Shown: positions 1,965 through 6,223 of the stretch, one piece after another
How positions within the stretch are numbered: the first letter of the stretch is position 1
Layout of the letters: the number at the start of each line of letters is the position of its first letter
DNA from: Flavobacterium sp.
GTDB lineage: Bacteria; Bacteroidota; Bacteroidia; Flavobacteriales; Flavobacteriaceae
DNA: 64,000 nt
Assembly: GCA_044378345.1 (NCBI GenBank)
Contig: JBILXS010000010.1
Span: 29,670 to 93,669 of the forward strand
Direction of reading: 5' to 3'
The notes under the pieces: generated by a model
The model's database searches: none
What the model was told of the DNA's origin: nothing
The model's input: the letters and a program-made list of their open reading frames with translations, nothing else
Translations under genes and position numbers: made by a program

Positions 1965-2037
1965 GTTGTCGGTTGGTTGTCGGTTGTCAGCTTGCGTTGC
2001 GCGTAACCGACAACTGATAACTGATAACCGACAACTG
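1965..2037. repeat. Inverted pair of GACAACC-type heptamer arrays filling the metH-metF spacer (empty cassette)
   Basis: gttgtcggttggttgtcggttgtcag, short spacer, then ccgacaa ctgataa ctgataa ccgacaa ctg. Confidence 0.9.
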
Positions 2038-2040
2038 TTC

Positions 2041-4758
2041 TTAATCTGCTATATTCGGGTTAAGCCATTTTGTAGCTTGTTCTGTACTGATGCTTCTTCG
2101 TTTGGCGTAATCGATGACCTGATCTTCTTTAATTTTTCCGAGACCGAAATATTTGCTCTCTGGATTTCCAAAATAATATCCCGAAACAGAAGACGCGGGC
2201 CACATTGCCATACTTTCTGTGAGTTTTACTCCAATGGCTTCTTCTACCTTCAAGATATTCCATATCGTAGGTTTCTCTAAATGGTCTGGACAAGCCGGAT
2301 ATCCTGGTGCTGGACGAATTCCTTTGTATTCTTCTTCTATTAAATCAACTTTATCTAAATTTTCATCTGTGGCATAACCCCAAATTTCTTTGCGCACTTT
2401 CTCATGTAAATATTCGGCAAATGCTTCCGCCAAACGATCCGCGAGTGCTTTGACCATAATGGAGTTGTAATCATCTAAATTTTTCTCAAATTCCGCTGCC
2501 CATTCGTCGACCCCAAAACCAGTTGTGACACAAAAGCATCCCAAATAATCTTGCTTTCCGGAATCTTTTGGAGCAACAAAATCAGCCAAAGCCATGTTGA
2601 AAGCGCCCTTCGTTTTTTGAGATTGTTGGCGGAGCGTTAAGAATTTGGTTGTCAGTTGTCGGTTGTCGGTTGTGAATTCTGTGACAACTTCAATGTCATC
2701 ATCGTTAATGGTATTGGCGGGGAAAATGCCATAAATTCCTTTAGCAGTGAATTTGTTTTCTTTCACAATTTGATCGAGCATTTCTTGTGCATCATTAAAT
2801 ACGGCTTTCGCTTGTTCACCTACAACCTCATCGGTCAGAATTGCTGGATATTTTCCGAACAATTCCCAAGTTCTAAAAAAAGGTGTCCAATCGATATAGG
2901 GAATCAACGTTTCAATATCAACATCTATAGTTCTAGACCCAATGAAGTTTGGCTTTTTAGGTGTAAAATTTTCCCAATCTAATTTTAATTTATTGAGTCG
3001 CGCTTGTTCGATGGTCAGGAAATTTTTATCTCGACTTCTGGTCAAATAACCTTCACGCAATTCGTCGTATTCGGATCGTATTGCTTTTGAATACATTAAT
3101 TTATCTGCATTCAATAAATTTCCTGCAACCGTAACAGCGCGCGACGCGTCATTCACATGCACCACAGTTTCTTTATATTCAGGTGCTATTTTCACTGCGG
3201 TATGTGCACGAGAAGTTGTCGCACCGCCAATCATGATTGGTATTTTGATATTAAGCTTATCCATTTCTTTCGCGAGATAAACCATCTCATCCAACGAAGG
3301 TGTAATCAAACCGCTTAAGCCAATAATATCTACGTTTTCTTTGATGGCCATTTCAATAATTCGCTCTGGTTGCACCATTACGCCCAAGTCGATAATTTCG
3401 TAATTGTTGCAACCGAGCACGACAGAAACAATATTTTTTCCAATATCATGAACATCGCCTTTTACGGTAGCCATCAGTATTTTGCCTGCGGAGGAAGATT
3501 TGCCGTCTTTTTGCGCTTCAATGAATGGCAACAAATACGCTACTGCTTTTTTCATGACGCGCGCCGATTTCACCACTTGAGGGAGAAACATTTTTCCTGA
3601 TCCGAATAAATCTCCAACGACGTTCATTCCTTCCATTAAGTTTACTTCTATGACTTCAATTGGGCTAGTAACAGAGAGCCGTGCTTCTTCAATATCAATT
3701 TCTATAAACTCGTCGATGCCTTTTACTAACGAATGTGTTAAACGCTCTTGGATTGATCCGGAACGCCATTCTTGAACCGCCTTTTCACTACTTTTAGTGT
3801 TACCTTTTATATTTTCAGCGAAATCGAGTAAGCGTTCGGTAGCATCTTCCCGTCTGTTGAGTAGAACATCTTCGACAAATTCCAGTAAATCTTTTGGAAT
3901 TTCATCATATACTTCAAGCATTTCGGGGTTAACAATTCCCATTGTCATTCCGTTTTTAATGGCGTGATACAAGAAAACCGAATGCATTGCTTCACGTACT
4001 TTATCATTTCCTCTAAAGGAAAAGGAGACATTGCTAACGCCGCCACTTACATGTGCATAAGGCAGATTTTCCTTAATCCATTTGGTGGCTCGGAAGAAAT
4101 CGAGTGCGTTTAATTTATGTTCGTCCATTCCAGTGGCGACAGGAAAAATGTTTGGATCGAAGATGATGTCTTCTGCTGCAAAACCAACTTCATCAACCAA
4201 AATATCATAAGAACGTTTGCAAATTTCTATACGTCTTTCGTAATTGTCTGCTTGTCCTTGTTCGTCGAAAGCCATTACGATCACAGCAGCGCCATATCGT
4301 TTGACCAATTTCGCATGGTGAATAAAAAGAGCTTCGCCTTCCTTTAGTGAAATAGAATTGACGACGCATTTTCCCTGAACTACTTTCAATCCGGCCTCGA
4401 TAATTTCCCACTTCGAGCTATCAATCATGACTGGAACTCGCGAAATGTCTGGTTCGGCCGCGATTAGATTCAAAAAAGTTGTCATGGCATGAACCCCATC
4501 GAGCATGCCTTCATCCATATTGACGTCGATGATTTGTGCACCGCCTTCTACTTGATCACGTGCCACAGAAAGCGCTTCATCATACCGTTCTTCTTTGATT
4601 AAACGAAGGAATTTACGAGAGCCCGTGACATTTGTTCTTTCACCAACATTGACAAAATTGGTTTCTGGAGTTACGATTAACGGTTCGAGACCTGAAAGCC
4701 GGAGATACTTCGTTGTCGGTTGTCGGTTGTCGGTTGTCGGCGTGACATCTTTAATCAT
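2041..4758 (-). CDS. metH: Cobalamin-dependent methionine synthase, pterin-binding, B12-binding and reactivation domains
   Basis: [18 protein letters not shown]12-binding motif, [12 protein letters not shown]; ATG overlaps the end of the four-helix-bundle gene. Confidence 0.97.
2647..2673. repeat. In-frame GACAACC heptamer array inside metH (encodes TTDNRQLTT)
   Basis: ggttgtc agttgtc ggttgtc ggttgt. Confidence 0.9.
4711..4740. repeat. (GTTGTCG)4 array, downstream arm of four-helix-bundle cassette, translated in the MetH N-terminus ([10 protein letters not shown])
   Basis: cgttgtcggttgtcggttgtcggttgtcgg. Confidence 0.95.
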
Positions 4759-5125
4759 TGAGTTTTCTGTAATAATTAATGAATCCGTTTAATATTCGTT
4801 TACATCGCTGCACGGTTTCAAATAGTGATTCGAAAATTTCTTTGGTAATATAATTTTGATCAAGTGCGATGAAAATTTGTGTTTCAACTTCATACAATGC
4901 ACCACGAGCAATATGTAGAAAATGTAAAGTATCCTTACTAGTACTTCGTCCGCAACCCTCGGCAATATTGGAAGGTATAGAAACAGCCGAACGTCTGATT
5001 TGATTTGTCAAACCGTAAAGTTCTTCTTTTGGAAAATTCCTCGAAACCTCATAAACATGATTCGTTAGCTTCCTGCATTCCTGCCAGACTTCCAAATCAG
5101 TGTACTCTTTTTTATTATCTTTCAT
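4751..5125 (-). CDS. Four helix bundle protein (TIGR02436 / 23S rRNA IVS protein family)
   Basis: [35 protein letters not shown] and [15 protein letters not shown] match the family pattern. Confidence 0.93.
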
Positions 5126-5142
5126 ATTTTGTTATAAAAAAA

Positions 5143-5205
5143 CTGACAACCGACAACCGACAACCGACAACCGACAACCATCAACCATCAACGAACAACC
5201 ATCAA
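5143..5205. repeat. Nine-unit heptamer array (CCGACAA/CCATCAA), upstream arm of four-helix-bundle cassette; overlaps the stop of metH N-terminal gene
   Basis: ctgacaa (ccgacaa)4 ccatcaa ccatcaa cgaacaa ccatcaa. Confidence 0.95.
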
Positions 5206-6189
5206 CTTCCTAGGCTTAAATTCTGAAGCAACTTCAGCAATCAATTTGATATGTTCTGGCGTTGTTCCGCAGCAGCCACCAATGATGTTAACTAGATTTT
5301 CCTTTAGATATTCTCGTATCAATTCCTGCATTTCTTGAGGCGTTTGGTCGTATTGTCCAAAAGCATTTGGCAATCCGGCGTTAGGATGTGCGGAAATATT
5401 TAAAGAGGTATTTCTAGCCAATCTTTTGAGGTACGGCTTTAGTTGATCTGCGCCTAAAGCACAATTGAAACCGACGCTTAACAAAGGAATATGGGAAATT
5501 GAAATGAGAAATGCTTCCACTGTTTGACCAGAAAGTGTTCGTCCAGAAGCATCTGTAATCGTTCCTGAAACCATAATGGGAATATCAATATTCCGTTCTT
5601 CTTTGACTTCTTCAATCGCAAACAAAGCTGCTTTGGCATTGAGTGTATCGAAAATAGTCTCCACCAGAAGCAGGTCGCAACCACCGTCGATTAACGCTTC
5701 TGCTTGTTGTTTGTAAGCGATTCTCAAATCATCGAAAGTAACAGCTCTAAAACCGGGATCATTGACATCGGGGCTCATGCTTGCAGTTCGGTTAGTTGGT
5801 CCAATAGAACCGGCAACGAAGCGGGGTTTGTTTGGATTTTTAGCGGTGAACTCATCGGCTACTTCACGGGCAATTTTGGCTGATTGGTAATTCAGTTCGT
5901 AAACTAGATTTTCTAGATGATAATCTGCTATTCCAATAGTGGTGCTAGAAAAGGTATTCGTTTCTATGATATCAGCACCTGCTTCGAAGTACTGCGCATG
6001 GACATCTCTTATGGCTTGTGGTTGCGTGATTGAAAGTAAATCGTTATTTCCTTTTAGAGAATGGGGAAAATCTTTAAATCGTTCGCCTCTGAAATCGGTT
6101 TCAGAGAAATTGTATCGTTGCAACATGGTTCCCATGGCGCCATCTAGGACGAGGATTCTATTTTGAATTTCTTGTTGAATTGTTGACAT
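5188..6189 (-). CDS. metH: Methionine synthase homocysteine-binding (Hcy S-methyltransferase) domain, separate polypeptide
   Basis: [23 protein letters not shown] and GGCCGT Zn ligands; start moved to ATG 6189 (MSTIQQEI). Confidence 0.95.
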
Positions 6190-6200
6190 GTTTTTTTGCT

Positions 6201-6223
6201 CGCAAAGGCGCCAAGACGCCAAG
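6201..6223. repeat. Short octamer tandem (cgcaaagg cgccaaga cgccaag) just upstream of the metH' start
   Basis: Three degenerate 8-nt units seen directly. Confidence 0.5.

Follow-up and report, generated by a model that had tools for sequence, protein, structure and literature searches.

How a run of tandem seven-nucleotide repeats came to be translated inside an essential enzyme is the question raised by the metH operon of a 64,000-nucleotide stretch from Flavobacterium sp. (assembly GCA_044378345.1, contig JBILXS010000010.1, positions 29,670 to 93,669), which we call the window. On the minus strand of the window the operon reads metH-N, a four-helix-bundle gene, metH-C and metF. The four-helix-bundle gene is the cargo of a cassette whose arms are arrays of the heptamer GACAACC, and an array of the same unit family lies in frame within the reactivation domain encoded by metH-C, the second part of the methionine synthase gene. 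A preliminary description of this DNA proposed that the repeats had spread locally from the cassette, possibly through a cis or transcript-linked process. The comparisons reported here favour a different answer, with a probability of about 0.68, namely that a member of a dispersed heptanucleotide simple-sequence-repeat (SSR) family, NACAACC, overwrote a tolerant hairpin turn, and that the array is not an offshoot of the cassette. Below, G000 denotes the window genome and P0001 its MetH-C, and loci, proteins and congener genomes are labelled L, P and G, respectively.

The array occupies positions 2647 to 2674 and reads ggttgtc, agttgtc, ggttgtc and ggttgtg on the plus strand, i.e., CACAACC GACAACC GACAACT GACAACC in the sense of the mRNA, in which two units are perfect and two carry one change each. 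It is in frame and codes for TTDNRQLTT, and its stretch encodes E694–F706 of MetH-C within the S-adenosylmethionine-binding activation (reactivation) domain (PF02965, Met_synt_B12; residues 614–888, minus strand 2095–2919, Pfam E 2.1e-125). The N-terminal peptide of MetH-C is nearly the same, and it is coded by the downstream arm of the cassette, four GACAACC units on the minus strand at 4711–4738, 2.04 kb away. The starting observation of nearly four in-frame units in this domain, with a peptide that is a near-copy of the N-terminus, was thus confirmed on the window sequence. The metH-C open reading frame (ORF; minus strand 2041–4758, 905 residues) is intact, and all four of its domains (pterin-binding, B12 cap, B12-binding and activation) are recognized by Pfam with scores of 215, 79, 76 and 418 bits, the activation domain also matching that of E. 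coli MetH (1MSK) with an E value of 8.7e-110. The exact protein is on record in several public assemblies, and the loop-array stretch is present in contigs from about 20 lake-water metagenome runs; therefore, the array is not an assembly artefact. No palindromic or inverted structure was found in the insert, which consists of direct repeats only and has no GGTTGTC partner inside the ORF. Its flanks in mRNA sense are GAATT-C and AAATTC. A check for target-site duplication showed that the arrays of the window and of L004 have AATTC at either end; in the closest array-bearing relatives, however, the left end reads GAACC-GACAACC, so the left AATTC looks like a later change. As a separate observation, a plus-strand ORF at 2656–2982 begins within the array and runs antisense to the conserved domain.

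The site at which the array lies was examined by comparing metH-C from 134 orthologous loci and about 120 further proteins, from sources that give the genus as Flavobacterium. Between the conserved DDDIE(L/V) (DDDIEV in the window) and FLTLRQQ these alignments define a hypervariable loop, codons V692–K705 in the window (minus strand 2644–2685), which shows 13 length classes, whereas any other internal site of the roughly 890-residue protein shows three at most; the loop is the only strongly length-variable internal site, a single indel hot spot, of MetH-C in the genus. An AlphaFold2 model of P0001:600-905 (mean predicted local distance difference test score, pLDDT, of 86) places a strand at 89–95, a turn at 96–102 (FTTDNRQ) and a second strand at 103–108, with the pLDDT dipping to about 71 at the loop, so that the array is predicted to form the turn of a solvent-exposed beta-hairpin in the reactivation domain. 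The alignment to 1MSK passes through the loop with a gap of only two residues, showing that a hairpin of similar length is normal for this domain. The ortholog alignment and the model together support the proposal that the peptide is a derived in-frame insertion or replacement in a variable surface loop of an essential enzyme. The further expectation that steps of three units would keep the frame was borne out as well, since length changes come as 21 nt (seven residues), as in L004, whose loop equals that of the window minus GACAACCGACAACTGACAACC. Among relatives at 93–94% identity, loops of 7, 14 and 20 residues occur, and none of the 134 loci carries a frame-shifting allele.

Where else does the unit occur? 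A two-unit probe, GACAACCGACAACC, searched with up to two mismatches, gave 14 matches in the window against 0.24 expected, a number reached in none of 100 shuffles, and 13 of the 14 fall in 1975–5186. The impression that such arrays are confined to one operon therefore holds for the window, but it fails for the genome, in which loose NACAACY arrays stand at about 42 places on 15 contigs, around 20 of them strict, and perfect GACAACC arrays are also found at C5:40464, C10:23410 and C11:91914. Period 7 is over-represented in G000, with 54 arrays against 30, 25 and 15 for periods 5, 6 and 8, and these arrays fall mainly into a NACAACY family and an AT-rich family of the TAATTAA type, the latter with stop codons. 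Eight of the approximately 20 strict NACAACY arrays (about 40%) are in frame in conserved enzymes, all of them in the ACAACC sense, which encodes the hydrophilic peptide P-T-T-D/N-N-R/Q-Q. Besides the MetH loop, their hosts are EPSP synthase/AroA with three arrays (L135/L170; C10:23013-24323, 5.3–6.7 kb before the first base of the window), a class I/II aminotransferase (C8:180531-181739), the linker of an E2 acyltransferase (C11:76269-77594), a GSCFA protein (C11:91612-92580) and YggS (C4:123031-123705), the last four being L136–L139. Compared with 19 relatives, AroA is longer by 7, 8 and 4 residues at its three arrays, which are insertions at variable loops. The unit is scattered through the genome and the genus, and five enzymes besides MetH contain it in frame; of 401 congeners, 135 have a run of three perfect NACAACC units at least once. 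A different array in G000 is noted here in its own right: at C15:15790-15834, TCTTGCT/TCTTGTC heptamers are read as LLLLASCFLSLVSCLS at the start of an ORF, which looks like a repeat-coded signal or lipoprotein peptide.

Across the genus, the loop of most congeners has the form xDENGKxLxx. Because most congeners carry it, and because the loops of the nearest outgroup rows are likewise acidic or Asn-rich (KDENEIYQ and others), we regard DENGK as ancestral within the genus. At least three NACAACC-type units stand at the loop in about 24 of 121 full rows, with peptides such as PTTNNQQPTT from AACAACC units, the window type being coded by GACAACC, and a further 23 to 29 rows have decayed arrays or other inserts. 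The arrays at the orthologous site number from one to about nine units (1, 3, 4, 5 and 9 were seen), and the loops range from 4 to 25 residues. In genomes whose metH was read, ACAACCNACAACCNACAACC matches elsewhere in the genome were found in 22 of the 24 with an array loop (median 7.5), as against 13 of the 74 with a DENGK loop (median 0); since these genomes are related to one another, the comparison is a description and not a test. The richest genomes are G091, G353 and G152, with 65, 59 and 53 NACAACC matches, respectively. Loop arrays go with a high number of NACAACC arrays genome-wide and not with the cassette. The same loop also holds heptamers of other sequence, i.e., CTTCCAA three times in L083, GCAACTC or GCAACCC in L106/L123 and CAACCTA/CCACCTC twice in L007/L109, and small repeats unrelated to them, i.e., an 18-nt piece coding for LSAVEG, a CCCCCGAAGGGGG hairpin coding for PEGG and a 24-nt palindromic repeat in L116.

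Several of these small repeats recur beyond single loops. The 18-nt piece, CTGAGCGCAGTCGAAGGG, stands in frame directly before the heptamer array in L034–L036, L083, L121, L129 and P0124–P0135, close relatives of the window MetH, and related pieces (CQAEPVEA, CQTELVEVH) substitute for the loop in L094 and L119. The GC-rich CCCCCGAAGGGGG hairpin element, read as PEGG or GVPPSGVRG, is translated in frame at the MetH hairpin in L029 and L059 and at the start (N-terminus) of metH-N in L003/L005. A palindrome-coded peptide, PDSYRD(G/A), was seen at heptamer-array sites of two enzymes in two species, the second array site of AroA (L182) and the MetH loop (P0025), which suggests a further small repeat family landing in the same loops.

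Whether the loop array stems from the cassette next to it can be read from operons that have only one of the two. The cassette cargo (minus strand 4751–5125, 124 residues) belongs to PF05635, the 23S rRNA IVS protein family, and to a lineage that we call P0002. Its upstream arm at 5145–5186 consists of five GACAACC units followed by CATCAAC on the plus strand (GGTTGTC in mRNA sense) and overlaps the end of metH-N. Orthologs without a nearby cassette should lack the peptide if the array had spread locally; they were checked, and L031 and others carry it. The L031 protein is 89% identical to the window MetH-C and has four to five perfect GACAACC units, the position and length of the array being exactly those of the window, whose copy differs from it only in having TTC for CCG and CTG for CCG. 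Neither a PF05635 gene nor, in the spacers on either side, a heptamer arm is present at the L031 locus. L032 and L034 likewise have an array loop and no cassette, and at least 18 of the approximately 24 array loops lie in an operon without the four-helix-bundle cassette. All members of the 90%-identity cluster of the window protein have the loop array, and only the window type has the N-terminal arm peptide. Conversely, among the nine operons with the P0002 cassette lineage, six have it at the metH-N/metH-C junction and three (L064, L103 and L112) in the metH-metF spacer, 70–100 nt downstream of metH-C, with arms GGTTGTT/GGTTGAT...CATCAAC; all six junction operons have array loops, and all three spacer operons keep the DENGK loop. 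Because array loops occur without a cassette and the spacer cassettes coexist with DENGK, the cassette is neither necessary nor sufficient for the loop array.

These observations bear directly on the explanation that the cassette arms seeded the loop array by cis or transcript-linked copying within the metH operon. It would account for the occurrence of one unit family in the loop, the spacer hairpin and the arms of the metH cassette, in a genome whose ten other cassettes each use another unit; for the array loops of all six junction operons; and for the three arrays of AroA, only 8 kb away on the same contig. Against it stand the array loops in operons without a cassette, the perfect array of L031 included, the near-identical MetH proteins with a loop array but without an arm, and the spacer cassettes that adjoin metH-C and left DENGK in place, as well as the in-frame arrays of the same unit on other contigs. 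Moreover, the arm and the loop of a single gene often disagree in the first base of the unit, one having G and the other A, e.g., in L010 and P0019–P0026, which speaks against ongoing conversion between the two. Local spread, as originally proposed, is thus not supported, and we regard it as decidedly unlikely. The idea that the loop array is a footprint of any neighbouring PF05635 cassette was rejected likewise, given that no cassette with the same unit is required nearby.

On the tree of MetH-C, the loop did not change only once. In trees built with the loop and N-terminal columns removed, DENGK and replaced loops are interleaved, and at least five changes are needed. Forcing all replaced loops together costs 609 log-likelihood units (approximately unbiased (AU) test, p 2.5e-41), by which a single origin of the replaced loop was rejected; the group was defined only once the tree was known, and recombination lies outside the model. 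It is not plausible that an array turned back into DENGK; the interleaving therefore reflects either several independent overwritings of the loop or recombination that carried loop alleles from one species to another. A trans-acting writer, i.e., a protein of a PF05635 lineage or another factor that propagates its cognate heptamer through the genome, so that the loop array is the product of an active register-7 copying system, would fit repeated rewriting of one site, although interspecies exchange of alleles could equally give the tree pattern. Such a writer would also fit the bracketing of all 11 PF05635 genes of G000 by inverted arrays, each of its own unit, the retention of GGTTGTY...NACAACC or CATCAAC arms by the P0002 lineage in nine of nine operons, and arrays that are homogeneous within a locus and differ in unit between species. 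However, the P0002 lineage (at least 57% identity) is present in only 29 of 400 congeners and is absent from the NACAACC-richest genomes, so a dependence on it was discarded. A cognate cassette elsewhere in those genomes was considered too; in G091, G152 and G353, with their 53 to 65 matches, none of the PF05635 genes examined has NACAACC arms, each of these genes having its own different unit, and G263 has one PF05635 gene with TACAAC-type arms. The arrays in the window have no polymerase, reverse transcriptase or recombinase linked to them. Taken together, a dedicated writer appears unlikely. A looser claim, that some DNA process working in a 7-nt register repeatedly overwrites loop-coding stretches (at least four to five times at the MetH hairpin in one genus, with differing units, and also in AroA and others), such that arrays would result from active seeding and homogenisation and would not be chance microsatellites that passed a selective filter, is one that we hold only tentatively and consider more doubtful than probable.

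The array is kept or renewed as DNA, as seen in rare codons such as CGA and GAC and in the perfect units of some species. Array-coded residues use GAC in 17 of 18, AAC in 30 of 35 and CGA in 16 of 17 cases, as compared with 5.3, 10.5 and 3.4 expected from genome codon usage, and between the window and L031 none of 12 synonymous positions in the array differs, compared with 53% in the flanks. Over 701 nt, a strain co-occurring in metagenome run X20 has four differences from the window, and three of these lie within the loop or beside it; A>G at 2654 (L702P) makes one GACAACC unit perfect again, and A>G at 2675 gives F695S. Arrays that are homogeneous internally yet diverge from lineage to lineage bear the signature of a tandem repeat under concerted evolution. 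An idea based on microhomology was tried and is retained as a lead without being counted as evidence: the ancestral loop DNA, GAAAACGGAAAACC, matches GACAACCGACAACC at 11 of 14 bases, but across the 30-nt loop the fit to a perfect array is no better than that of the best 10% of windows from the same genes.

The same data bear on two functional explanations. The array might be an RNA or DNA element that pairs with GGUUGUC arms, in the cassette or in the metH-metF hairpin, and alters processing or decay of the operon mRNA, or it might be the site of a heptamer-reading protein. Complementary GGUUGUC arrays do lie in the mRNA at 5145–5186 and, some 620 nt downstream from the loop array, at 2007–2036, and perfect units are kept in some species in spite of saturated synonymous sites in the flanks. 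Yet the array is absent from most congeners, array species often have no complementary arm (L031) or another unit in the spacer hairpin (TGAAACC in L010, GACTTTC in L007), and unrelated units or repeats occupy the site in other species, all of which makes this explanation very improbable. Selection of the peptide for enzyme function, e.g., as a flexible linker or as a contact with flavodoxin or the B12 domain during reactivation, is in our estimate the least probable of all. The hydrophilic sense is always used and the motif is widespread in the genus; nevertheless, lengths of 4 to 25 residues and unrelated sequences occur at the site, rare array codons are kept at the DNA level, the same peptide stands in loops of unrelated enzymes, and most of the genus, as well as E. 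coli, lacks it.

We therefore return to the dispersed SSR family as the preferred source of the array. Under this explanation, arrays would arise and turn over by replication slippage, by ectopic conversion between arrays, or by both, and selection on an essential ORF would let through only those changes that come in three units (21 nt, seven residues) and have stop-free, loop-compatible translations, a filter that would explain the site, the orientation and the step size. The loop peptide would then be a tolerated passenger and not a functional module, and the cassette arms, the spacer hairpin and the loop array would share a unit because all draw on one genomic repeat family, none having seeded another. 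Several points weigh against this account. Neither slippage nor conversion was directly observed, and contigs of four metagenome runs showed no length variants or indels, though contigs drop rare variants; within the 90% cluster the number of units is constant. The codon test is partly circular, because the loops were selected by their DNA units. In the pooled test of synonymous sites, the arrays give 0.31 against 0.47 in the flanks, but the DENGK control drops similarly (0.29 against 0.41), and the test was for this lack of specificity rejected as proof of DNA-level constraint. The co-occurrence of junction cassettes with array loops in six of six operons leaves room for some local interplay. 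Finally, tolerance alone does not explain period 7 or the repeated targeting of this one site.

Comparison with known systems places the array closest to the heptanucleotide SSRs of other bacteria, i.e., the cyanobacterial STRR sequences, the GGGAATC-type repeats of Xanthomonas and Nostoc (PMC4692102) and the TAACTGA repeats of Beggiatoaceae, cyanobacteria and some Bacteroidetes (PMC4679880). The MetH loop shows the defining features of such a family, namely head-to-tail 7-nt copies, many arrays elsewhere and copy-number differences between close relatives, and as in the known families the tandem units are dispersed over the genome, with period 7 over-represented and some pairs inverted. For heptamer repeats, slippage with a polymerase contact of about 7 nt has been proposed (Mrazek 2007, as cited in PMC4679880). 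However, known families are mainly intergenic and under-represented in coding regions (PMC4692102, PMC4679880), whereas here about 40% of the strict arrays are in frame in conserved enzymes, with three-unit steps and with differing units recurring at one loop. Rickettsia palindromic elements (RPEs) are in-frame inserts in metabolic genes, palindromic units of about 100–150 bp that resemble miniature inverted-repeat transposable elements (PMC10969869). The loop array is like them in that unrelated housekeeping genes contain repeated DNA whose translation adds a peptide where the fold permits it and leaves the host gene functional, but it is unlike them in being a short direct 7-nt array with no inverted partner within the gene and no consistent target duplication. 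With the arms of PF05635 cassettes it shares the unit family, the downstream arm being translated as well (as the MetH-C N-terminus); it differs in being solo and direct, without cargo or inverted partner, and in occurring in genomes and operons without a cassette. A slippage-prone tandem repeat within an ORF also recalls phase-variable contingency loci, although no out-of-frame allele was found in the 134 loci or in four metagenomes, and the host is a housekeeping enzyme in which only frame-preserving steps are seen. In a literature search, no publication was found that describes translated heptamer arrays in enzymes of Flavobacterium.

The remainder of the operon contains further features of the same kind. 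The metH-N gene (minus strand 5188–6222) encodes the homocysteine S-methyltransferase domain, and metF lies at 1001–1957 on the minus strand. The spacer between metH and metF is filled by a cargo-less inverted heptamer hairpin at 1965–2036, to which no strand is assigned; only inverted arms are thus present in the window where L064, L103 and L112 hold the P0002-lineage cassette, which is consistent with a cargo-less remnant or an empty site. In four other MetH-C proteins (P0022, P0068, P0071 and P0075), of about 1030 residues, an endonuclease-like DUF559 domain (PF04480) of about 136 residues is inserted in frame at residues ~417–556, in the linker before the B12-binding domain, and is bounded by the peptides PEGG and PPSG. 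These bounds look like the two arms of a CCCCCGAAGGGGG / CCCCCTTCGGGGG hairpin, and the insert would be a second kind of cargo-bearing in-frame insert in metH-C.

Some bacterial genomes show heptanucleotide repeats, an oddity that was noted long ago, is still unexplained and has been considered intergenic; here, one such family is translated inside essential enzymes, MetH, AroA and others, where selection appears to allow only three-unit steps, one strand orientation and surface turns. The one hairpin of MetH was hit in many lineages, and the DENGK, array and other-unit alleles among the 134 orthologues form a natural series for the study of repeat origin, homogenisation and decay, and of loop tolerance. 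Moreover, the repeat family now stands apart from the four-helix-bundle cassettes whose arms are drawn from it, a distinction relevant to the question of whether such cassettes make the repeats or merely borrow them.

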